Shown: one piece after another, positions 42,138-63,090 of the stretch | Layout of the letters: each line of letters begins with the position of its first letter | How positions within the stretch are numbered: the stretch's first letter is position 1 | IMG/VR virus record: IMGVR_UViG_3300025645_004731 | Location: 26,616 to 90,615 of that record | Reading direction: 5' to 3' (one strand) | DNA length: 64,000 nt | From: a virus | The notes under the pieces: model-generated | The model's database searches: none | The model's input: only the letters and a program-made list of their open reading frames with translations | What the model was told of the DNA's origin: nothing | Position numbers and translations under genes: made by a program

Positions 42138-42809
42138 TTACAATTCTTCAATTAATATTATTTTTGTGGAAGAGTCAATGTGTTCTTTGTACATTAGATG
42201 TAACATACATACATCATCGTAATTCTTTAAGTATACCGTTCCAGTAGCTCTCCATGGCAATACTGGCCAATGCCGCATTGAGGACAAACTTCGTCCAACA
42301 TTCGCAGAATCTATTTCGTTTAATCGTCTGTAACTGCGTAAGGCACTATTACATCGGTATATGTTAGCATCAAACGAATCTAAAATAAAATCATGAACCT
42401 CGCCAAATACTTCCATATCACGACGATATTTCATCATGCTAATTTTATATCTAAATTCACCGTAATATAATCTGTCACGCAATATGGTGGTTTCATCATT
42501 TACCAGCAGTGACGCATGAGATGGAGTCGCTGGTCCCATAATTTCAATAACAGCACCGCCAAACGAGTTCAATAAATCGGACACTGCCTCGGGTGTTTGG
42601 AGATATATACAGAAATTATGTCCGCCCCACCGAGATTTATACGGATGCTGGTTCTGTATCAATAGTGCTGCATATTTGTTAATATGAAGTCTCTCGAATA
42701 AGTTATCTCCGTCAAACTTAATTCGATAGGTGTAGTTTCGGTACCATGCCCGTGATGTGACATGGTACCGTGAGTCTGATTTAAGTTGTGTGAATAACAA
42801 TTTTGTCAT
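42138..42809 (-). CDS. Hypothetical protein
   Basis: ORF overlapping the clpA end. Confidence 0.6.
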   Translation of the reverse strand: MTKLLFTQLKSDSRYHVTSRAWYRNYTYRIKFDGDNLFERLHINKYAALLIQNQHPYKSRWGGHNFCIYLQTPEAVSDLLNSFGGAVIEIMGPATPSHASLLVNDETTILRDRLYYGEFRYKISMMKYRRDMEVFGEVHDFILDSFDANIYRCNSALRSYRRLNEIDSANVGRSLSSMRHWPVLPWRATGTVYLKNYDDVCMLHLMYKEHIDSSTKIILIEEL

Positions 42810-45015
42810 CCACTATCTCAATCTTTACACTAGTTACATTATCGCCAAACAACAGTGTTTTTGCGAGTGGCTTCTTGATTTGTTCGTTAATCAATCTTGC
42901 CATTGGTCTAGCTCCCATTGTTTCCGTAAAGCCATTATCGGTGAGCCATGTCAATACTTTAGCACTATACGCCAGTTTGATACTGCGAGGCTTTAGCATA
43001 TCCGACAAATCACCCATAAACTTCTTGGTAACCCGCTTCATAAGTGTTTTATCCAACTTGTCGAATTTCACCGTAGCATCCAACCGATTGCGGAATTCAG
43101 GGCTAAAGTAACGCTTTACCGCATCATCGCTTGCGCTTGTGTTTGTATTATCACCAAAGCCAATCATATTCTTCTCGGCATCACGGGCGCCAAGATTACT
43201 GGTTAGGATAAGAATAGCATTACGAGCACTAACACTTTTACCTTCACTGTTGGCAATCATTCCATTATCCATTAATGCGAGTAATACATTACTGATATCT
43301 GGGTGAGCTTTTTCGATTTCATCAAACAATAGAATACAGTTGGGATGTTCTTCCAGTTTATTAACCAATAGACCAGATCCTTGACCACCACTGCCGTATC
43401 CAACATAGCCAGGAGGAGCACCGATTAGTTTAGCAACACTATGGCTCTCTTGGTATTCACTCATATCAAAGCGAACAAGTTCCATACTCATTGCTTCACT
43501 AAGTTGCTTAGCAGTTTCAGTTTTACCAACACCAGTAGGTCCAGTAAACAGGTAACAACCAACAGGCTTTTGTGGATCTTTAAGTCCTGCTTTGGCGATA
43601 TAAATGCTGTCGGCAAGTCTAGTAATGGCATCATCTTGGCCAAATACTTTCTTCTTAACAACTGCCTCGATATCAACAGGCTTTTCTTTTTTGTATTCGC
43701 TGTCCTTGGTCAGTACAAGTTGATCAACTGGAATACGGGTCATTTTTGCGACTTCGTATCGTACTTCATCCAGACTAATAATGCTTTTACGATCCTCTTG
43801 TGGTAGTAACTGTTGACGAGCAGCGGCGGCATCTAATACATCAAATGCTTTGTCTGGCAACTGTCTGTTATGCCAATATTGGTGAGTAAGGTCAACAGCA
43901 CCGTCCATGGCTTGTTTCTCGAATACTAGTTCGTGAAACAATTCATATGCGGGAATAGTTGCTCGGACAATGCGCTTGGCATCTTCTACACTTGGCTCAG
44001 CGATGTCCACTTTATGGAAGCGACGATTAAGAGCCTTATCTTTTTCAAACTTTTCTCTGTATTCTTCATATGTTGTTGAACCGATACAGCGCAGATTGCC
44101 CTTTTGTAACGCAGGCTTTAGTAGATTAGCAATATCCATGCCGCCACTTCCAGCACTACCGGCTCCCATGATCATATGAATTTCATCAATAAACAAGATA
44201 GCATCGCCGCGTGTTTCAAGAGCATCCAATACTTCTTTAAGACGCTCTTCGAAGTCACCTCTGAATTTGGTACCAGCAAGCAGTGCGCCGATGTCTAGGC
44301 TATAGATTGTGTTATGTGCGATAACTTCAGGAACACGATCTTCATTGATAAGACAGGCAAGACCTTCGGCGATTGCTGTTTTACCAACTCCACTTTCGCC
44401 AACCAGAATAACATTGTTTTTCTTACGGCGGGCAATAGTCTGTACAAGTGCTTCCAGTTCTGGCTCACGACCGATGATTGGATCAATTTTGCCATGAAAA
44501 GCAAGCTCATTCAGATTGTCACAATATTTGTTCAGAATCCTGTCTTGTTTGTTTGGCTTGTGGTCAACACTGGTACCAGGAGTATCGAAATCATCCATCG
44601 ACTGTGATAGATTAACTGCTTGGTCACGGGTAATACCATCAAGAAAATGTAGCGCAGGAGTATTTTCCTCTGATAGAATACTAAGGAAGATGTCAAGTGG
44701 TGTCAAATCGTGTCTACCGCTAAACATTGCCTGAGTGAGTGCTCGTTGGAATACTCGTTCTAGCATTGCTGTTTTCTTTGGCTGAATGTTATTTGAATCA
44801 CCATCCATTTTGTCAATTTCTTTTTCTAAAAAGAGTTCGACGTTTTCTAAAATAACTCTTGGATCTTTTTCTAAGTCAATCAGCAAGTCTTCGATTTCTT
44901 CGTCACGGATCAACACAAGCAATAGATGCTCAAGTGTTACGTATTCGTGTTTATATCCGCGTGTCAGTTCGAAAAGCTCTTCTACTAATTGGTTAATTCT
45001 GGCGTTTTTGGACAT
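42781..45015 (-). CDS. clpA: ATP-dependent Clp protease ATPase subunit
   Basis: HEYVTLEHLL N-domain; GESGVGKT/FIDEIH; GPTGVGKT, RFDMSEYQE.HSV, GAPPGYVG, PEFRNRLD, GARP; no ClpB M-domain. Confidence 0.93.
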   Translation of the reverse strand: MSKNARINQLVEELFELTRGYKHEYVTLEHLLLVLIRDEEIEDLLIDLEKDPRVILENVELFLEKEIDKMDGDSNNIQPKKTAMLERVFQRALTQAMFSGRHDLTPLDIFLSILSEENTPALHFLDGITRDQAVNLSQSMDDFDTPGTSVDHKPNKQDRILNKYCDNLNELAFHGKIDPIIGREPELEALVQTIARRKKNNVILVGESGVGKTAIAEGLACLINEDRVPEVIAHNTIYSLDIGALLAGTKFRGDFEERLKEVLDALETRGDAILFIDEIHMIMGAGSAGSGGMDIANLLKPALQKGNLRCIGSTTYEEYREKFEKDKALNRRFHKVDIAEPSVEDAKRIVRATIPAYELFHELVFEKQAMDGAVDLTHQYWHNRQLPDKAFDVLDAAAARQQLLPQEDRKSIISLDEVRYEVAKMTRIPVDQLVLTKDSEYKKEKPVDIEAVVKKKVFGQDDAITRLADSIYIAKAGLKDPQKPVGCYLFTGPTGVGKTETAKQLSEAMSMELVRFDMSEYQESHSVAKLIGAPPGYVGYGSGGQGSGLLVNKLEEHPNCILLFDEIEKAHPDISNVLLALMDNGMIANSEGKSVSARNAILILTSNLGARDAEKNMIGFGDNTNTSASDDAVKRYFSPEFRNRLDATVKFDKLDKTLMKRVTKKFMGDLSDMLKPRSIKLAYSAKVLTWLTDNGFTETMGARPMARLINEQIKKPLAKTLLFGDNVTSVKIEIVDDKIVIHTT

Positions 45016-56274: not shown

Positions 56275-57081
56275 TTATTTTATACCATTCCACACCGCGA
56301 ATATCTCAGATGCTTTTTTCCTAGACCCAGCAGAAGCAGAGATACTTCTAGTTACCGAAATTTGTTGAAACTTTGCGCCCTTATACAATGTTCGTGCCAT
56401 CGGAACATCGTGATTGGAAACAACGACTCTGACACCATTGCTTGCCAATGATTGGCAAATATCTGCCAACTCTTCTTGCTGTTCCATGCTAAATCCTTCT
56501 TTGGTGTAAGCAGTGAAATTCGCAGTCTCAGACGCGGGAAGATACGGAGGGTCAAAATAAACAACATCTCCTTCACCCAAATCGGTGTAATAAGATGGAT
56601 CATTGAACGATGTATTTTTGAATGTTACACCACTAAACTTGTTCTTGAAATTTTTTATTTCTTCTTCTGGGAAATGTACTTTGTCATACGCACCAAATGG
56701 TGAATTGTAATTTCCACTTTTATTATATCGTGTTAGTCCGTTGAAACAATGTCTGTTCAAATACAAAAACAAGTAAGGTGAACGAGTTTCATTGAACTCG
56801 TCTCGTATCTTATTGAACTTTTCTCGGTCTATGCCATTAATGTAATACTGCTTGGCGGTGTCTATAAAATTCTCGTCAAATAAAACCGCATTGTATAAAT
56901 CGATGATGTCAGAGTTAATATCTCCAATTCTATATTCAGTTGCGGAGGTGTTCAAGGACACGACAAAAGAACCGCCAAACGGTTCAACAAATGTATTTGG
57001 GTTGCCGATGTGTTGCTGCAACGCATCCATAACACGAATTTTATTGCCTAGCCATTTTAGTATTGATTTTTTATATGTCAT
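56275..57081 (-). CDS. dam: Dam-family (alpha class) DNA adenine methyltransferase
   Basis: LKWLGNK, FVEPFGG, DIN, YLNRHCFNGL.RYN..G.YN.PFG, YFDPPY, SN. Confidence 0.92.
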   Translation of the reverse strand: MTYKKSILKWLGNKIRVMDALQQHIGNPNTFVEPFGGSFVVSLNTSATEYRIGDINSDIIDLYNAVLFDENFIDTAKQYYINGIDREKFNKIRDEFNETRSPYLFLYLNRHCFNGLTRYNKSGNYNSPFGAYDKVHFPEEEIKNFKNKFSGVTFKNTSFNDPSYYTDLGEGDVVYFDPPYLPASETANFTAYTKEGFSMEQQEELADICQSLASNGVRVVVSNHDVPMARTLYKGAKFQQISVTRSISASAGSRKKASEIFAVWNGIK

Positions 57082-57148
57082 AAAGTTAGTATACCCTATA
57101 TAATGCATTTTTGCAATGGTATTTATTTACGTTCAAGATCATAGTCAT

Positions 57149-57241
57149 AGTGATTCTCTTTTCTCTGTTGCTATACATATAATATACACTAAGTTACCTC
57201 GGTTGTCAAGCAAAAAGCGCAACAATAAATGCTGCGCTTTC
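57149..57241 (-). repeat. Terminator hairpin + cassette promoter-leader repeat
   Basis: Same hairpin as at 50189 and 63902; the leader opens only a 20-codon ORF before dam. Confidence 0.9.
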
Positions 57242-57266: not shown

Positions 57267-57740
57267 TTATTCGAATAAACTATTAAAGTGTTCCTGTTTT
57301 TGTTGTTCTTTCACTTCATCGTCGTATGGATGCGAATCGTCAAAGCGATAATGATAGCGTAGTCCGTCGGCACACACAATATTCTGCTCCACGATATGGC
57401 GTAGATCCTCTCGCCCACATAGCAATCTGTCCTGACACAATTTAACATTGTCTGGCATTAGGTCTACGCCATAAGTGGTGCTTAACGCAGTTTCAAAGTC
57501 ATGCTCGTTTTGTAGTTTGCGATATAACACACTAGCGAGAAACTGACCGTCACCACACGCTGGGTCTAGGAATGTTTTGGTAGAATCAATAAACAATTCA
57601 GCATCCATCTTGTCTAGTATTTCTTCTACAAGAGGAGTAGGTGTAAACACCTCGCCAGTTGCCTTAACACGACTATGCTCACGGTCTGTGCCGCTCATAT
57701 ATTCTCTGTCGAATAAGTGACTGTGTATATCAGTAATCAT
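57267..57740 (-). CDS. N-terminal (SAM-binding) half of a gamma-class N6-adenine MTase
   Basis: TGEVFTP (X), FLDPACGDGQFL (I), YGVDL (II), NIVCADGL (III); no NPPY. Confidence 0.85.
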   Translation of the reverse strand: MITDIHSHLFDREYMSGTDREHSRVKATGEVFTPTPLVEEILDKMDAELFIDSTKTFLDPACGDGQFLASVLYRKLQNEHDFETALSTTYGVDLMPDNVKLCQDRLLCGREDLRHIVEQNIVCADGLRYHYRFDDSHPYDDEVKEQQKQEHFNSLFE

Positions 57741-58524
57741 AGTTATCCATTCTGATGCTTTTCATTGCTCCTAGTGTCATGTTATTCATTCCTCCACATG
57801 CGCCCAATGCTTGACTTACAAATTCGGGCGTTTTCATATATTCAGTCAGATATTTTGCTTCTTCGTGTGTGTCCACAAACGCCAGGTTTACTCCATTAGT
57901 AGCTACTGCTGTTCCGTCACATATCACGATTTCAGTATTTGTCCAACCATCACGCTGAATCTGTTGTGGCATAATGACAGCATAACCATCCTGCGGAAAA
58001 AACTTCAACGTAGAAATATTTTCACTTGTCGTTGACTGTGTTAATCCTTTGCCGTTTATTTTATGGTAAACAGTATAAGGACCAGGCGTATCAGTCAACA
58101 AGTGCTTTTCTGTTGTCACGTTTACTTTGCCTTTCGCCCATTTAACTTTTTGTTCTGGAAGTTCTTTCAAATCTGCCCAGTCGATGTGCTCAACGTTAGT
58201 CTCGCTATTATCTTTTATTAAGCACCACGTTGATATATTGACATCAAACGTGCCATCATCTACTGACATTATCTTATTCGTGTTCTCTCGGATAAAGGAG
58301 TTAAATATGGTGTGCTGTCTACTAGTGTTCGGCACAATCATTATCACAGTATCCGCCATTGCTGTCGCCATTTTGTAAAACGCCGGGTATAGGTTGGGCG
58401 CTCTGCCTTTTTTACCAGTTTTATTTCCTGCTAAACTATAGGGTGGGTTGGCTACTATTGCATCGAATTGTACGTCCTTCAAATCAAAAAACTCCTGGTA
58501 TGTAATGTAGTTTATATCTAACAT
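57730..58524 (-). CDS. C-terminal half of a gamma-class MTase (catalytic motif IV + TRD), copy B
   Basis: MLDINYIT...FDAIVANPPY, LYP.F, MIVP, F.V; no motif I. Confidence 0.8.
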   Translation of the reverse strand: MLDINYITYQEFFDLKDVQFDAIVANPPYSLAGNKTGKKGRAPNLYPAFYKMATAMADTVIMIVPNTSRQHTIFNSFIRENTNKIMSVDDGTFDVNISTWCLIKDNSETNVEHIDWADLKELPEQKVKWAKGKVNVTTEKHLLTDTPGPYTVYHKINGKGLTQSTTSENISTLKFFPQDGYAVIMPQQIQRDGWTNTEIVICDGTAVATNGVNLAFVDTHEEAKYLTEYMKTPEFVSQALGACGGMNNMTLGAMKSIRMDNYDY

Positions 58525-58795
58525 AATTTTCAAACAACTCCTTAACTTCGTCATTAGTCCATTTTTTATTTTTATCAAACGGCGGAACATATTTTAAAGC
58601 ATCATTAAACCCTGTATTATATAATTTTTTCCACTTATCCATGTGATCTAAAAAATACTGGCTGAATAAAAATGATTTAATGTTTTCTATCTGCTCGTCG
58701 TTTTCTATTTCTATAATAACATATTGTGTTTCAAAGTCTAAGTGCGATATTTGAATAATCTCTTCTTTAAAACTTTTACTTCTAGAAATGCTCAT
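58484..58795 (-). CDS. Distal TRD fragment of MTase copy A (out of frame with 58792-59547)
   Basis: E..ENIKSFL.S..F...GFN....VP..D..K.WT.DE...F, typical of TaqI/Eco57I-like MTase C-termini. Confidence 0.65.
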   Translation of the reverse strand: MSISRSKSFKEEIIQISHLDFETQYVIIEIENDEQIENIKSFLFSQYFLDHMDKWKKLYNTGFNDALKYVPPFDKNKKWTNDEVKELFENYVRYKLHYIPGVF

Positions 58796-59547
58796 TTTTT
58801 CTTACCAGTAAACCACGGCTCTCTTTTACTGTACGCACTTAGTATTAGTTCGTCGTCTTTTACTTTATATGCAGGATAGATATGATCTGCTGTTTTTGTT
58901 TTATTATAAGCAGGTCCGTGATTGTTCTGTTTAAATGCTCTATCTGCAATAGGTAATTTTCCTAAAGCCTGTGCTAGTTCTGCAAACTTAATATCAGTTA
59001 CTGAAGGATCAAATACAGAAGTACCAAATTTGACATAATCAACACCAGCATCTGAAATTACTTTGATGTCGCCGCTATATGTTTTGTCTACGATCCAGCT
59101 ACATATTTTTGCTCCAACATTAAAATGTTTATCGGCAGTAAAGTCAATTTCTTTTACACCGTGCGTTTCTGTTAATGCAAATCTTTTAGAAAGATTAGCT
59201 ACAGCAACAGGAGTAACAAAGTTAACTGTGCCTGTTTCACTTACAAGCTCTATTGCTTTTTTAGAAAACTGGTTATAAATTTTATTTTGCTGATTGTCTT
59301 TGATGCTGTTATCCTGATAGGGTGGATTGCCGATCACTGCGTCAAATTGTACGTCCTTCAAATCAAAATACTCCTGTTGTGTAATGTAGTTTATATTCAA
59401 TGCCGATTCGTCAATGCCGTTTGCCCGAAAATACATGGACCAACGTTTCTGTGATAATCTATTTTCCAAATACACCCAGTCGCCAAGTTTGATAGTTTTC
59501 ACTTGGGCCTTAATGTGCAGATTGCTATAAACATGTAGTGTTTTCAT
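58792..59547 (-). CDS. C-terminal half of a gamma-class MTase (motif IV + proximal TRD), copy A
   Basis: FDAVIGNPPYQ, IYNQF, FVTP, HFNVG; no motif I. Confidence 0.8.
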   Translation of the reverse strand: MKTLHVYSNLHIKAQVKTIKLGDWVYLENRLSQKRWSMYFRANGIDESALNINYITQQEYFDLKDVQFDAVIGNPPYQDNSIKDNQQNKIYNQFSKKAIELVSETGTVNFVTPVAVANLSKRFALTETHGVKEIDFTADKHFNVGAKICSWIVDKTYSGDIKVISDAGVDYVKFGTSVFDPSVTDIKFAELAQALGKLPIADRAFKQNNHGPAYNKTKTADHIYPAYKVKDDELILSAYSKREPWFTGKKK

Positions 59548-59584
59548 GGCCACTTATCTCTTGATAATTTTTACTTACTACTAT

Positions 59585-59613
59585 ACTATACACCAAGGCA
59601 CCTCGGTTGTCAA
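59585..59613 (-). repeat. Promoter-only copy of the cassette repeat
   Basis: TTGACA accgaggtgccttggtg TATAGT. Confidence 0.85.
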
Positions 59614-59646
59614 GTGTTATTTGATATGTGATTCAATGTATTTTAT

Positions 59647-60750
59647 TCATTTTACCATGCCCCGTCTATCAATCTTGCCAATGGTTTCTTTTTCGGTGTC
59701 GCTTAGTTTATAAATATCCATGATTTCATCATCTGTCATTTCTACAGTCACCTCGGGATGTAAATACAATGCTGACCAGAAATTATGATACCATCTTTTA
59801 TCTAGAACAACAAATCCATCCCACGCAACTCGCGCAAACATATTGGTTTTTAACAAACGCTTTAATTTTTCGGGTTCATCATGTGTCCAATATAAGTTGG
59901 TATCTTTCGCAGTGTTATCAAACGTTAGGTAGCCATATCTTGAAGTGGAAAATCCCTTAGTTGTTAAATCTTTATCACGCGCAATTGAAATAGGGGCTTT
60001 ATTATTAATAATTTTTTCTGCAACTGATTGTAGTTCACATTCGTTGGTATAAAATCCAACATCATTAAAATTGGTCATCTTATTGTTAATAGTTGCGCCC
60101 ACAATATCCTCTGTTTTAATTCCAATAAAATAACAGATTTTAATACCTACTGTAAAGTAGCTAGAAACATCTGTTTCGGCTTTTAAAATATTGATACCTT
60201 TCATACCAGAAATAGCAGTGCCACATTGACCATAAACAGTTGTTTTGAATATAGCGGACGGCACAACTAACGCAACAATTCCGTCATCTTTTAATAAATT
60301 CGATATTTTTTCCATAACAGAAACATACATCTTTTTTCCGCCACCTTGGTTCGTTTTTTTGTTGGCACGAACTGGATTCTGGTACGGAGGATTACCAACT
60401 ACAGCATCAAATTTCATATTCATTAATTCCTTAATCATAATATACTTATATCCTAGATGCTCCGTGATTTTTTTTGTTTCTGGACAAAAATTCTCAGTAG
60501 CAACAGTGACATTTTTTGCTCCTCGGTCGAATAATTCAGCCGCGAATTCAACAGCGAACAACACCAAGAAACTTTCGTGTTTGTGACTGATCGAATCTAA
60601 CATTCTACGAACAAGTCGGCTGGGCGTATATGGCACCGGATTATTGGTGAATGTCGGGCCCTTTGCACCAGATCTCAATGTACAAATGACCCCACCCTCT
60701 TCATTGCTAATTATATTTCTAAACTTGCTTTTCTCAGATAATAGGCCCAT
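59647..60750 (-). CDS. Gamma-class MTase-TRD with degenerate SAM-binding motif, copy C
   Basis: PYTP..LV.RML (X-like); FLVLFAVEF in place of DPxxGxG; FDAVVGNPPYQ; GIVALVVP; TRD tail. Confidence 0.78.
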   Translation of the reverse strand: MGLLSEKSKFRNIISNEEGGVICTLRSGAKGPTFTNNPVPYTPSRLVRRMLDSISHKHESFLVLFAVEFAAELFDRGAKNVTVATENFCPETKKITEHLGYKYIMIKELMNMKFDAVVGNPPYQNPVRANKKTNQGGGKKMYVSVMEKISNLLKDDGIVALVVPSAIFKTTVYGQCGTAISGMKGINILKAETDVSSYFTVGIKICYFIGIKTEDIVGATINNKMTNFNDVGFYTNECELQSVAEKIINNKAPISIARDKDLTTKGFSTSRYGYLTFDNTAKDTNLYWTHDEPEKLKRLLKTNMFARVAWDGFVVLDKRWYHNFWSALYLHPEVTVEMTDDEIMDIYKLSDTEKETIGKIDRRGMVK

Positions 60751-60810
60751 AGTGATTCTCTTTTTTTGTTTCTATACTGCAGTTATACACCAAGGCACCT
60801 CGGTTGTCAA
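60751..60810 (-). repeat. Cassette promoter-leader repeat copy
   Basis: TTGACA accgaggtgccttggtg TATAAC tgcagtatagaaacaaaaaaagagaatcact ATG. Confidence 0.9.
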
Positions 60811-60823
60811 GCGAAAAATAAAA

Positions 60824-61588
60824 TTAAAGCTTGGCTAATAGATCATCTTCTTCTTTTAATTTATTCTGCATAGTTTCCCATTCTGGATCCTTGGGTCCGT
60901 TAATAAGTAATGGCATTATGCCGAGTTTTTTACGGAATTCATTCCAAAAGAATGGATTTCCATTAATTTTTTTACTAATTTTCTTGTAGTTTATCACTTC
61001 GATATCGCCGAAGGTATTCGCTTCTAGTTTATAATGTAATCCTTTGGCAGTAGTAAAAAGAATATAACGAGCAAAGCATCCTTGACCAGACATTCTGGCA
61101 TGTCCTTGGGCATTGCCGAAAAAGTTCATGACTCTGCTGCCATCATTGGTGGTATGCTCTTTTGTTGGATTTAAGCTACCCTTAACTTGAAGATATACTG
61201 GGCTTCCAGATTTCGAAATCTTGCGAATTCTTTTACCATAAGATTTTTCTTGGGATGTATTTGCTGTTGCGTCATATCCCGTGTCTTCTAGATCCTCGTC
61301 GATTGTATCCATACTGATATAACTTCCTAAATTATAATCACTGAGTCCGAAAGTTTCAAAGAATACTTCACTCAATGCCTCTACCCCTGCTCCGAAATAT
61401 CTTGGTGCCTTGATGCTTTTATTATCCTCGTCTGTATGTGACATCCGTAAATCCTCACGATACGGAATTAATGCATCAATATTGTTTGATTGTTTTTTTA
61501 GAGCAAGAAGGAACTTATCTAATTTCTGAATTTTATCGAATGCGGTAGTATCAATACAATACTTAAACCAACTATGTTTATTTGACAT
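60824..61588 (-). CDS. Mrr-like PD-(D/E/Q)XK endonuclease candidate
   Basis: G..VEALSE.FF...DTGYDA...YLQVK...ILFTTA, the E..D..QxK pattern; coupled to the helicase by TAATG. Confidence 0.6.
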   Translation of the reverse strand: MSNKHSWFKYCIDTTAFDKIQKLDKFLLALKKQSNNIDALIPYREDLRMSHTDEDNKSIKAPRYFGAGVEALSEVFFETFGLSDYNLGSYISMDTIDEDLEDTGYDATANTSQEKSYGKRIRKISKSGSPVYLQVKGSLNPTKEHTTNDGSRVMNFFGNAQGHARMSGQGCFARYILFTTAKGLHYKLEANTFGDIEVINYKKISKKINGNPFFWNEFRKKLGIMPLLINGPKDPEWETMQNKLKEEDDLLAKL

Positions 61589-63000
61589 TATTGTACTTCC
61601 TTCGCTGATGTATCAAACAATTCCCAGAATAATGCGTCCTGGCCTTCTGTTACTAGAATATCGGTTGCTTCCTTATAAATTGCATCATCACGATCCATCA
61701 ACTCACCGCCTGGCGTCGGCATATTATGTTGATCCTCAACATCTGCCCAGAACTCAGCAAGATCATAGCCACCTTGCTCAAACATGGCAGCATAGGTAGA
61801 TAAATTGGAATCACCTGCCCATTCTCCGTTGAATCTGGCAATAGTAACAATACATTCTGTCTTGATTCGATTCTTGCGAAGTTCTCCGGCAAGAGCACCA
61901 GACTTGATAATATCAGCGTTTGCCGCACGGCACCCACGGCCGATTGTCTGAATTGCTTTTACCATGCCAAGACCGCGCAAGATCAACACTCCGCCGATGC
62001 CGTCAACATCAATGCCTTCGGCTAATGTATCACAATGCATGATGATAGAAGGATTAGGATTTTTAGCAAAGTCGGCAACTAGCGCATCTCGGTCCATCTG
62101 TAGGCTACCGTTCTTCACTGCTGTATCAGCAGTAACATAATAAAGATCAATATCGTTATTTCCTACAATATTGCGAATCTCACTCAATTCGTTCGCAATA
62201 TCCGAAAAGTTCATGGTATTGGGCATTGCTACCAACATCTTATGAACGAAATCCTTATGCGCAAATGTCAGTTGGTCCTTAAACGCCGCGGCGATAGCAG
62301 ATACATAATCTTCGGTATTGCCGTTATCAGTACTGAGAACATTTACAGTACGAATTCGCGGGCGGACAATATATCCGTTAGGAATAAGTTCTTTTGGCGA
62401 TACATCAGCAATCACTGGTCCAAATAGTTCAACATTATCCATACTCGCTTCTGCTGCTGCCATACGAACGGGCGTACCAGTATAGAACAGTGTCTTTGAT
62501 TTAAACAGATGCATATTCTCGCGCAGGTCAGATTGTACTAGATAGTGCGCTTCATCACAGATGATAAGATCAAAGTTCATAGCAGCGATACGATGTAAAC
62601 TTTTATAACTTGAAAATGTTATATGCGCTCCATTATGAGAATTCATAATTTCTTGCAACACGTTCGTATCTGTAGTGGATACATTCTTCTTATCGTTCAG
62701 AGTATGCGTCTTTGCTTGACCGCTATGAAAGTTCGTAAACTCAATTCCCATGCCGGCGAATGTTTTAGCAAAACGATTTTGCTGATTCTGGCTTAGTGCT
62801 ATACGTGGATGAACTACAAGAATACGTGCTGCGCCGTGAGACATAGCAGTAACTACTTTCATAATTAAATCTTGAAAAACTTCTGTTTTGCCGCCGCCAG
62901 TAGCACATAAAATAGTGCCACGGGTAGCATCAGGATCAGACATGAATTTATCTTGTGCCTGTATCATGCGAACTTGGTATGGTCTAAACTTCATAGTCAT
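61588..63000 (-). CDS. SF2 helicase/ATPase (Type ISP / ResIII-like)
   Basis: RPYQ, ATGGGKT, VHPRIALSQ, FSSYKS, IICDEAH, YTGTP, LAEGIDV, QTIGRGCR. Confidence 0.9.
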   Translation of the reverse strand: MTMKFRPYQVRMIQAQDKFMSDPDATRGTILCATGGGKTEVFQDLIMKVVTAMSHGAARILVVHPRIALSQNQQNRFAKTFAGMGIEFTNFHSGQAKTHTLNDKKNVSTTDTNVLQEIMNSHNGAHITFSSYKSLHRIAAMNFDLIICDEAHYLVQSDLRENMHLFKSKTLFYTGTPVRMAAAEASMDNVELFGPVIADVSPKELIPNGYIVRPRIRTVNVLSTDNGNTEDYVSAIAAAFKDQLTFAHKDFVHKMLVAMPNTMNFSDIANELSEIRNIVGNNDIDLYYVTADTAVKNGSLQMDRDALVADFAKNPNPSIIMHCDTLAEGIDVDGIGGVLILRGLGMVKAIQTIGRGCRAANADIIKSGALAGELRKNRIKTECIVTIARFNGEWAGDSNLSTYAAMFEQGGYDLAEFWADVEDQHNMPTPGGELMDRDDAIYKEATDILVTEGQDALFWELFDTSAKEVQ

Positions 63001-63061
63001 AACGATTCTCTTTTCTTTGTTTCTATACTGCAGTTATACACCAAGGCGCATTGGTTGTCAA
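63001..63061 (-). repeat. Cassette promoter-leader repeat copy
   Basis: TTGACA accaatgcgccttggtg TATAAC tgcagtatagaaacaaagaaaagagaatcgtt ATG. Confidence 0.9.
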
Positions 63062-63090
63062 GTGTTAAATGACATTATTATTAAAAAAAG

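Follow-up and report, generated by a model that had tools for sequence, protein, structure and literature searches.

A cassette of minus-strand genes carried by an uncultured phage encodes a superfamily 2 (SF2) helicase-like ATPase, an Mrr-family nuclease, adenine methylases with target recognition domains (TRDs), and a stand-alone protein that corresponds to the S-adenosylmethionine (SAM)-binding half of a methylase. The stretch of DNA that was analysed, referred to below as the window, makes up the final 64 kb of IMG/VR virus record IMGVR_UViG_3300025645_004731 (90.6 kb). CheckV rates the record as 24% complete, so that it represents part of the genome of a large freshwater phage. We put the probability at about one half that the cassette is a phage-borne, multi-subunit, ATP-driven restriction-modification-like machine, a relative of the Type ISP and Type I enzymes. 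A first-pass annotation of the window had drawn up the parts list of helicase, nuclease, methylases, SAM-binding half and an adjacent Dam-type methylase, and that list holds with two corrections: one of the methylase genes is two open reading frames (ORFs) in different frames, and another methylase, A, has a complete fold.

Restriction-modification is usually regarded as a form of cell defence, and here a conserved motor-nuclease-methylase set is found on lytic-type phages. Should the cassette cut unmarked DNA, it would arm phages against the genomes of hosts or rivals, a proposition made testable by the cultured marine cyanophages that carry the set. The cassette genes are labelled in phage records as hypothetical protein, methyltransferase or helicase. 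A megablast search with the region against 50,697 phage records gave no match, and literature searches (supplementary files apart) gave no description of the cassette or of a stand-alone half-methylase.

The nuclease

The gene at 60824-61588 (minus strand) encodes a protein of 254 amino acids (aa) without a Pfam match, and its sequence motif is decisive for its identity. According to PMC2790908, the nuclease motifs of Mrr and LlaGI consist of a Glu following a small residue (motif I), DxGxD (motif II, in which a second Asp sits four residues before the catalytic Asp with a Gly between), and QxK instead of ExK (motif III). The phage protein has G66 and E70, D102-x-G104-x-D106, and Q134-x-K136 in these places. 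Residues E70, D102, G104, D106, Q134 and K136 are invariant among 30 relatives, and the same six together with G66 are invariant among 16 diverse members of the family, down to 19% identity. The E...D...QxK pattern noticed in the first-pass annotation is thus real, and because the invariant motif equals the Mrr/LlaGI definition, the protein is an Mrr-family PD-(D/E)XK nuclease.

The fold of the protein, which the first-pass annotation had singled out for checking, agrees with this assignment. An AlphaFold2 (AF2) model built from the 30-sequence alignment, with a predicted local distance difference test score (pLDDT) of 90.5, contains the alpha-beta-beta-beta-alpha-beta core of restriction-endonuclease-like proteins. 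Comparison with 48,161 chains by VIA-align placed the nuclease domain of LlaBIII at the top (4xqk_A residues 12-169, Z 9.8, root-mean-square deviation 3.5 Å over 136 residues), followed by MspJI (8.9), AspBHI (8.7) and the small subunit of R.BspD6I (8.0), with only three chains reaching Z 8. Scores of Z 7-8 are common in VIA-align, so the LlaBIII match taken alone is moderate evidence. Foldseek returned no match for the model at E <= 0.001, and its list of weak matches consisted almost entirely of PD-(D/E)XK nucleases.

An initial search for the family to which the nuclease belongs gathered 53 clusters and a profile search of 5.8 billion proteins gathered 71, none of them named, and the nuclease is present in only 17 of the 50,697 phage records. 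No match to phages was obtained by tblastn, and the cyanophage homologues surfaced only through phrog_7683 and hhalign. A sequence search of the PDB with a nuclease profile (A7) gave no match. Two nuclease alignments, A1 and A8, also supplied patterns for scans of 185,579 cellular species genomes, in which no relative appeared; the patterns are subfamily-specific, and this result is therefore weak evidence of absence.

The helicase

The 470-aa product of the gene at 61588-63000 (minus strand) contains a Walker A motif around K38 and a DEAH box at residues 149-152. All of the SF2 motifs are present and conserved in a nine-sequence alignment, which also reveals a conserved C-terminal extension of approximately 80 aa. 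Pfam matches include ResIII (7.7e-18), DEAD (1.1e-12), SWI2_SNF2 (1.3e-8; 35.3 bits against a cut-off of 26.7) and Helicase_C. A search of the PDB with the nine-sequence profile found XPB-II (3e-7), SauUSI (7clg), Rad25, RadD and one HsdR, with LlaBIII not among the matches; the single sequence had no match in the PDB. The entry 7clg is named as SauUSI in a preprint on the MANTIS system (bioRxiv 10.64898/2026.09.23.753747). The PADLOC matches were PbeA, a 1646-aa Type IIG model (1.6e-11) and a Type I enzyme, and the NCBIfam matches were the Dnd restriction enzyme, HsdR and XPB, all far under cut-off (approximately 38-40 bits for the HsdR models, whose cut-offs are 550-729).

The motifs quoted in the first-pass annotation are present in the translation. 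Its placement of the helicase specifically in the Type ISP subfamily was not supported, the best matches being weak and spread over PbeA, Type IIG, HsdR, Dnd, XPB and SauUSI. Judged by these matches, the protein is a restriction/repair-type SF2 motor, and finer placement is not possible.

Methylase body A

Downstream of the nuclease, the gene at 59647-60750 (minus strand) encodes a 367-aa methylase body, A, that matches Pfam Eco57I (8e-13) and carries an NPPY motif at residues 120-123 followed by a TRD. In the AF2 model (71 sequences; pLDDT 77 overall and >90 over residues 40-125), a motif X helix is followed by the elements beta1-alphaA-beta2-alphaB-beta3-beta4 at residues 61-119. The predicted structure is a complete gamma-class (TaqI/CamA-like) methylase fold with a full Rossmann half and a TRD, and the gamma-class order of motifs X, I-III, IV-VIII and TRD, with NPPY as motif IV, is found in one chain. 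Foldseek matched the model to CamA (1.8e-10), and VIA-align scored CamA at 16.4, M.TaqI at 15.8 and the LlaBIII methyltransferase at 13.3, with Z values of 15.5-16.4 for CamA, M.TaqI and M.BseCI and 269-294 residues aligned. These top matches are gamma-class enzymes that stand alone and end in a TRD, HsdM structures also being among the best; a PDB sequence search gave no match. The idea that A is a half-methylase awaiting a SAM module was given up, as the model shows A to have its own beta1-beta3 within a complete fold.

The SAM motifs I-III of A are degenerate, and NPPY is retained. In place of a glycine-rich motif I and an acidic motif II residue for SAM, A has a loop past beta1 of two residues with no Gly, and the family consensus has an invariant-like Glu at a helix start. 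N120 and P122 are invariant across the 71 relatives. The A-family profile collects 3472 proteins at E <= 0.001, and a glycine-rich motif I ahead of NPPY was not found in 148 of the best 150 representatives. P0204, a methylase of 360 aa whose glycine-rich motif I is normal, has a TRD 52% identical to that of A. TRDs therefore move between types of N-terminal half, since an A-type TRD here stands behind a normal motif I.

Some joints in metagenome contigs fall at gene A. In a related strain from a 2024 metagenome, one contig matches A to motif IV and resumes at the A stop codon (joint 59647-60389, side 33), a hint, from a single short-sided joint, of TRD replacement at the motif IV boundary. A joint in run X6 skips 59619-60765, which is exactly gene A, and is also short-sided.

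The combination of a retained adenine pocket with lost SAM motifs would also be expected of a Type IV-like, modification-dependent nuclease, in which a SAM-dead A would read methylated adenine and steer the motor and nuclease to methylated host DNA. The second and third fold matches of the nuclease, MspJI and AspBHI, are modification-dependent enzymes, and PMC2790908 describes Mrr as methyl-directed. The same source describes LlaGI as having the same nuclease motif and yet not being methyl-directed. SAMh, the half-methylase of the cassette, has intact SAM motifs and is conserved, and the phage's own DNA would be exposed to such a nuclease by the Dam and other adenine methylases that the phage encodes nearby. 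On balance, we regard a modification-dependent nuclease as very unlikely.

Linkage of the four parts in related phages

Conserved linkage of helicase, nuclease, methylase and SAMh was examined in close relatives, in a wider survey and in cultured phages. The close-relative set comprises 19 metagenome and IMG/VR loci, from which L006 was left out as the same phage. Upstream of the nuclease, the helicase is present in 14 of the 15 loci with room for it; downstream, an A-like gene is present in 13 of 13, and SAMh is next in 10 of 10. In the window, the helicase stop codon overlaps the nuclease start by 1 nucleotide (nt); in most relatives the two genes likewise overlap or directly adjoin one another, and the same is true of the A-like gene and SAMh. 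Each close relative has a single methylase gene, and one helicase copy (L010) has an internal stop.

A wider survey covered 79 IMG/VR loci picked by the methylase motif (the best 80 of 96 confirmed), and 14 of the 79, two of them near-duplicates, have the nuclease; a helicase accompanies it in 14/14, a stand-alone SAMh in 12/14, and the methylase is atypical in 12/14. The order of the genes is variable: helicase-nuclease-methylase-SAMh, nuclease-helicase-methylase-SAMh, nuclease-methylase-helicase-SAMh, helicase-methylase-nuclease-SAMh and methylase-helicase-nuclease were all encountered. At one locus (L048), a 734-aa protein fuses the nuclease (52-199; hhalign probability 94.5%, E 7e-8) to the helicase (208-629; 98.4%, E 7e-15), nuclease first, as in Type ISP enzymes. 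The N-terminal likeness to the nuclease of a 709-aa helicase protein at another locus (L074) was insignificant.

Among cultured phages, the cyanophages ACG-2014f, Bellamy and S-CAM7 have all four parts, in three further orders. Genes gp051-054 of ACG-2014f encode SAMh, nuclease, methylase and helicase in that order (nuclease hhalign 97.1%, E 6e-11), and the set is held by genes 85-88 of Bellamy and genes 054-057 of S-CAM7 (055 unscored). The co-occurrence in relatives that the first-pass annotation had asked for is therefore seen in the close relatives, in the IMG/VR survey and in cultured cyanophages.

The linkage data bear directly on the possibility that the cassette is two independent neighbours, with the helicase and nuclease serving replication, recombination, repair or breakdown of host DNA, and with A, B, C, SAMh and Dam (B and C being two further methylase genes, described below) only protecting phage DNA. 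Genes for a ligase, UvdE and a 5′-3′ exonuclease adjoin the cassette here and in a 333-kb relative (L003), each block has its own promoter-like repeat, XPB is among the top helicase matches, and approximately 400 cyanophage records have a related helicase, most of them without the other parts. S-H9-1 is one of these; the neighbours of its helicase proved not to be the cassette. Set against this, the four parts stay linked through differing gene orders in distant phages, every survey locus with a nuclease also had the helicase (14/14), and the methylase beside the nuclease is atypical in 12 of 14 loci. Two independent neighbours are accordingly considered unlikely.

Some relatives have a motor and a methylase and no nuclease, as would be expected if the cassette were a DarB-like translocating methylase for anti-restriction, in which the motor speeds self-marking, the nuclease is an accessory for nicking or loading, and foreign DNA is not attacked. 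In P-SSM2 (genes 036-041, L024) a split permuted methylase (036 and 037) is followed by a 462-aa protein of unknown family, a helicase and, two genes past the helicase, dam; no nuclease homologue was found in this cluster, and genes 036 and 038, which were compared, are not homologous to it. P-SSM2 is one example of the phages that retain a helicase, a split methylase and Dam without the nuclease. Fusions of a methylase to an SF2 helicase are a common dyad in phage polyvalent proteins, of which P1 DarB is the archetype; the helicase of the cassette exceeds the SWI2_SNF2 cut-off; and proteins of approximately 1140-1160 aa with this methylase at the C-terminus are followed by SAMh. Opposed to a role confined to self-marking are the nuclease's catalytic signature, invariant in distant members, and its pairing with the helicase in 14 of 14 loci with one fusion; because the pairing is constant and one fusion exists, nuclease and helicase have the build of a restriction subunit. 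The degenerate SAM motifs of A are likewise ill-suited to a dedicated fast methylase. A DarB-like function for the cassette thus seems rather improbable.

The stand-alone half-methylase

The last gene of the cassette (57267-57740, minus strand) encodes the 157-aa SAMh, which matches Pfam N6_Mtase at positions 22-97 and aligns to residues 11-104 of M.BseCI. Its proposed identity as a SAM-binding-only half stands, as it has motifs X, I, II and III only, and the residues of these motifs are invariant in the family alignment. The same domain forms the C-terminal part of circularly permuted one-piece methylases that start at motif IV, for example ORF0215 of Aeromonas phage phiAS5 (phrog_11371). Homology of the N-terminal half of A to SAMh is unsupported by sequence, because hhalign of the two families gave only an 18-column match at motif X with a probability of 6.6%. 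Prediction of an A-SAMh complex gave scores of 0.15 and 0.29 against a mark of 0.32, and counts neither way.

A stand-alone SAMh is present in 35 of the 79 survey loci, and most of the SAMh-bearing loci have no nuclease. The role of SAMh is not specific to restriction, because it adjoins normal methylases without nuclease or helicase. Judged by its gene neighbourhoods, SAMh is a general companion of the A-type methylase family and not simply a missing half. The atypical methylases of the nuclease-bearing loci fit a scheme in which A provides the adenine pocket and the TRD, and SAMh provides the SAM motifs. We tentatively suggest, at odds well below even, that SAMh could be an exchangeable cofactor subunit that docks on methylase bodies, including SAM-dead ones, and supplies or gates SAM in trans. 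If so, one SAMh could serve several bodies (A, B and C) and set the choice between methylating and cutting, and supply of SAM in trans would be a new way, widespread in phages, to build or regulate DNA methyltransferases and restriction enzymes. The libraries and literature searched assign no function to a stand-alone half-methylase, and SAMh may be a sign that adenine methyltransferases have a subunit so far unrecognised. That a single SAM half serves three partners is not supported: the Rossmann half of A is its own, with degenerate SAM motifs, the gene for B is interrupted, and relatives have one methylase.

The SAMh domain was also met in other settings. It is N-terminal in proteins with unrelated C-terminal parts and lies within a 944-aa protein with a low-complexity N-terminus (P0056, P0058 and P0064). 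The end of a second SAMh-like gene lies upstream of the helicase in L013 (2-385), 68% identical over residues 98-138 and unlike the downstream copy. In L003 (10799-12388) an A-like gene and SAMh are in frame, parted only by TAA and one codon. In the proteins of approximately 1120-1175 aa (P0094, P0186 and P0213), a methylase of this family is C-terminal to a region of approximately 860 aa that matches no Pfam family and no helicase or nuclease hidden Markov model; at L028, L035, L039 and L106 proteins of this kind are followed by a stand-alone SAMh.

Methylases B and C

The first-pass annotation described three proteins with NPPY and a TRD. Two of these, A and C, stand as described. The second (58484-59547) is instead two ORFs in different frames: the first part of methylase B (58792-59553, minus strand; 253 aa, NPPY and the start of a TRD, Pfam Eco57I 1.6e-11) and a 103-aa ORF in the -1 frame (58484-58795, minus strand) that encodes the remainder of the TRD. 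The first part of B aligns to residues 1-166, and the 103-aa ORF to residues 192-281, of a one-piece homologue, P0077, which runs from B through the 103-aa ORF to SAMh. Because P0077 covers both ORFs in one piece, B and the 103-aa ORF are one gene, either interrupted or needing a -1 shift. The junction lies at an A6 run, where the TGA of B overlaps the ATG of the 103-aa ORF. Assembly error is excluded here because a DNA contig from another study (X6, 57669-59557) spans the junction without gaps and with the same letters, and an RNA-library contig (X11, 58604-58892) is also identical with no gap.

Methylase C (57730-58524, minus strand) is a 264-aa protein that starts at motif III/IV, lacks beta1-beta2 and matches Pfam Eco57I at 3e-7. 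A start at 58524 is plausible from the sequence, where an ATG giving 264 aa is preceded by AAGGAG at 13 nt; the longest ORF extends to 58590. C overlaps SAMh by 11 nt at its end, and the layout of C followed by SAMh resembles the split form in P-SSM2, in which gene 036 starts at motif IV and is followed by 037. An 80-nt direct repeat (58438-58517 and 59317-59396, copies 86% identical) lies over motif III-IV of C and B, the TRDs of which are unrelated, and the end of the B TRD is truncated where C starts. The arrangement looks like a partial tandem duplication at the 80-nt repeat.

The three TRDs, put forward in the first-pass annotation as a set of alternative specificities, are particular to the source phage, because relatives have a single methylase gene; as a general feature of the cassette they did not survive the comparison. 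The interrupted B, the C without an N-terminal half, the A without SAM motifs and the helicase stop in L010 could together suggest a remnant in decay that does little or nothing in the source phage. The helicase, nuclease and SAMh are nevertheless 40-70% identical across relatives with invariant catalytic residues, and the 2024 strain differs at only 4 of 2239 bases over helicase and nuclease; decay is an extremely improbable explanation for the cassette.

A proposed mechanism and its difficulties

From the parts, their catalytic motifs and their linkage, we infer a machine capable of methylation, a choice between self and non-self, translocation and cleavage. In this scheme the helicase and the Mrr-type nuclease, made as two translationally coupled proteins, would be the counterpart of HsdR or of the nuclease and motor portion of a Type ISP enzyme. 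A would read the DNA target through its TRD and keep the pocket for the flipped adenine (NPPY), its own SAM motifs having decayed, and SAMh would contribute exactly the SAM-binding motifs that A is missing and nothing else. A, probably with SAMh, would mark the phage's own DNA. On unmarked host or rival-phage DNA, A would recruit the motor and nuclease, leading to ATP-driven translocation and cleavage, which would yield nucleotides or keep out competitors. The interrupted B and the C without an N-terminus would be partial duplicates that arose by recombination at the 80-nt motif III-IV repeat, and C with SAMh, which looks like a circularly permuted methylase in split form, may give the phage a second specificity of methylation.

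Several observations weigh against a restriction-modification-like machine of this kind. A already has its own beta1-beta3, which leaves the route of SAMh to the active site of A unexplained, and in the survey stand-alone SAMh lies beside 16 methylase ORFs with a normal N-terminal half versus 11 atypical ones. Two nuclease-bearing loci (L031 and L079) have no stand-alone SAMh, and in one close relative (L020) the nuclease is partial and the approximately 1.2 kb upstream contain no helicase match. The helicase has weak matches scattered among restriction and repair enzymes, with NCBIfam scores far under cut-offs, and in the source phage B is interrupted. RNA-library contigs from two studies match pieces of every cassette gene at 100%; they are a hint of expression and do not prove transcription.

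Genomic context and promoter-like repeats

The genes encoded in the window include a DNA polymerase, a ligase and an ATP-dependent protease (744 aa, 42781-45015; phrog_4871, E 5e-237), and a tRNA-Ile with anticodon TAT is located at 9-102. Beyond SAMh lies the gene for the Dam-type methylase (56275-57108, minus strand; PF02086, 8.6e-52), which is treated here as a neighbour, with no claim that it belongs to the cassette.

A 28-nt promoter-like repeat with a TTGACA-like start occurs at 8 sites on the minus strand between 37245 and 63062 of the window (<=3 mismatches), as compared with 0 in 100 shuffles, and heads many genes of the accessory region in which the cassette lies. One of these matches precedes the helicase gene (63035-63062), exact matches precede A (60784-60811) and B (59587-59614), and another match precedes Dam (57183-57210). 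Because the repeat precedes these four genes, it suggests, at the level of sequence, transcription units of helicase-nuclease, A, B-103-aa ORF-C-SAMh, and Dam.

DNA nearly identical to that of the window is present in metagenomes of 13 studies, from freshwater and some marine sites. Metagenome contigs break or join at the promoter-like repeats, all such joints being short-sided, and these joints may reflect gain and loss of cassettes, assembly ambiguity or strain differences. Several bins lack depth in single runs, among them, in X9, B and most of the TRD of A.

Comparison with known systems

Type III (Res/Mod) enzymes were considered on account of the helicase-then-nuclease gene order, which is that of Res, and ruled out by the class of the methylase and by the nuclease-first order of the natural fusion. 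In Pfam the methylases match Eco57I and N6_Mtase, and by fold they match gamma-class enzymes; a beta-class Mod (N6_N4_Mtase) was not found.

The cassette shares with Type ISP enzymes, as described in PMC4666363 and PMC2790908, an Mrr-family nuclease motif, an SF2 ATPase, and a gamma-class adenine methylase with a TRD; the LlaBIII nuclease domain is the best fold match of the nuclease, and the L048 fusion follows the Type ISP order. Type ISP enzymes are nevertheless single chains, whereas here and in all relatives the parts are divided among at least four separate proteins, only nuclease and helicase being fused, in one phage, and the gene order is variable. The methylase body of the cassette is also without SAM motifs and an extra half-methylase is present; no coupler domain between motor and methylase was identified, although no search aimed at one was made; and the cassette is carried by lytic-type phages rather than by a plasmid that defends the cell.

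Type I enzymes resemble the cassette in being multi-subunit, with HsdR among the best helicase matches and HsdM among the best fold matches of A. In HsdR, an N-terminal PD-(D/E)XK nuclease lies ahead of the SF2 motor. The cassette differs in that the TRD lies within A, with no separate S gene, and the R subunit is split in two; scores against the curated models of the Hsd families are far under their cut-offs.

The bacterial MANTIS (Gao_RL) system, likened here by its description in the preprint (bioRxiv 10.64898/2026.09.23.753747), is also methylation-based and has a methylase dependent on accessory proteins and, as a separate effector, a helicase-nuclease; it differs in its AAA+ ATPase and PLD nuclease and, in that description, in having no half-methylase. 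DarB of phage P1, according to PMC5512222, is a phage-borne EcoKI/TaqI-like adenine methylase with an SF2 motor. Unlike the cassette, DarB is one giant protein of the virion; it has no nuclease and serves to protect DNA, not to cut it. The permuted and split phage methylases (phiAS5 phrog_11371; P-SSM2 036/037) are similar to C with SAMh, in which motif IV and a TRD are followed by motifs X and I-III; in the conserved cassette, by contrast, the neighbour of SAMh is A, whose fold is already complete. In chloroviruses, host DNA is thought to be degraded by virus-encoded restriction enzymes, and PMC7019647 offers a parallel of virus-encoded restriction with self-methylation, differing in that a eukaryotic virus encodes the enzymes as small Type II pairs, with no motor. 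Among these systems, the cassette shows how the single-chain Type ISP and multi-subunit Type I enzymes can relate to one another through natural split and fused forms.

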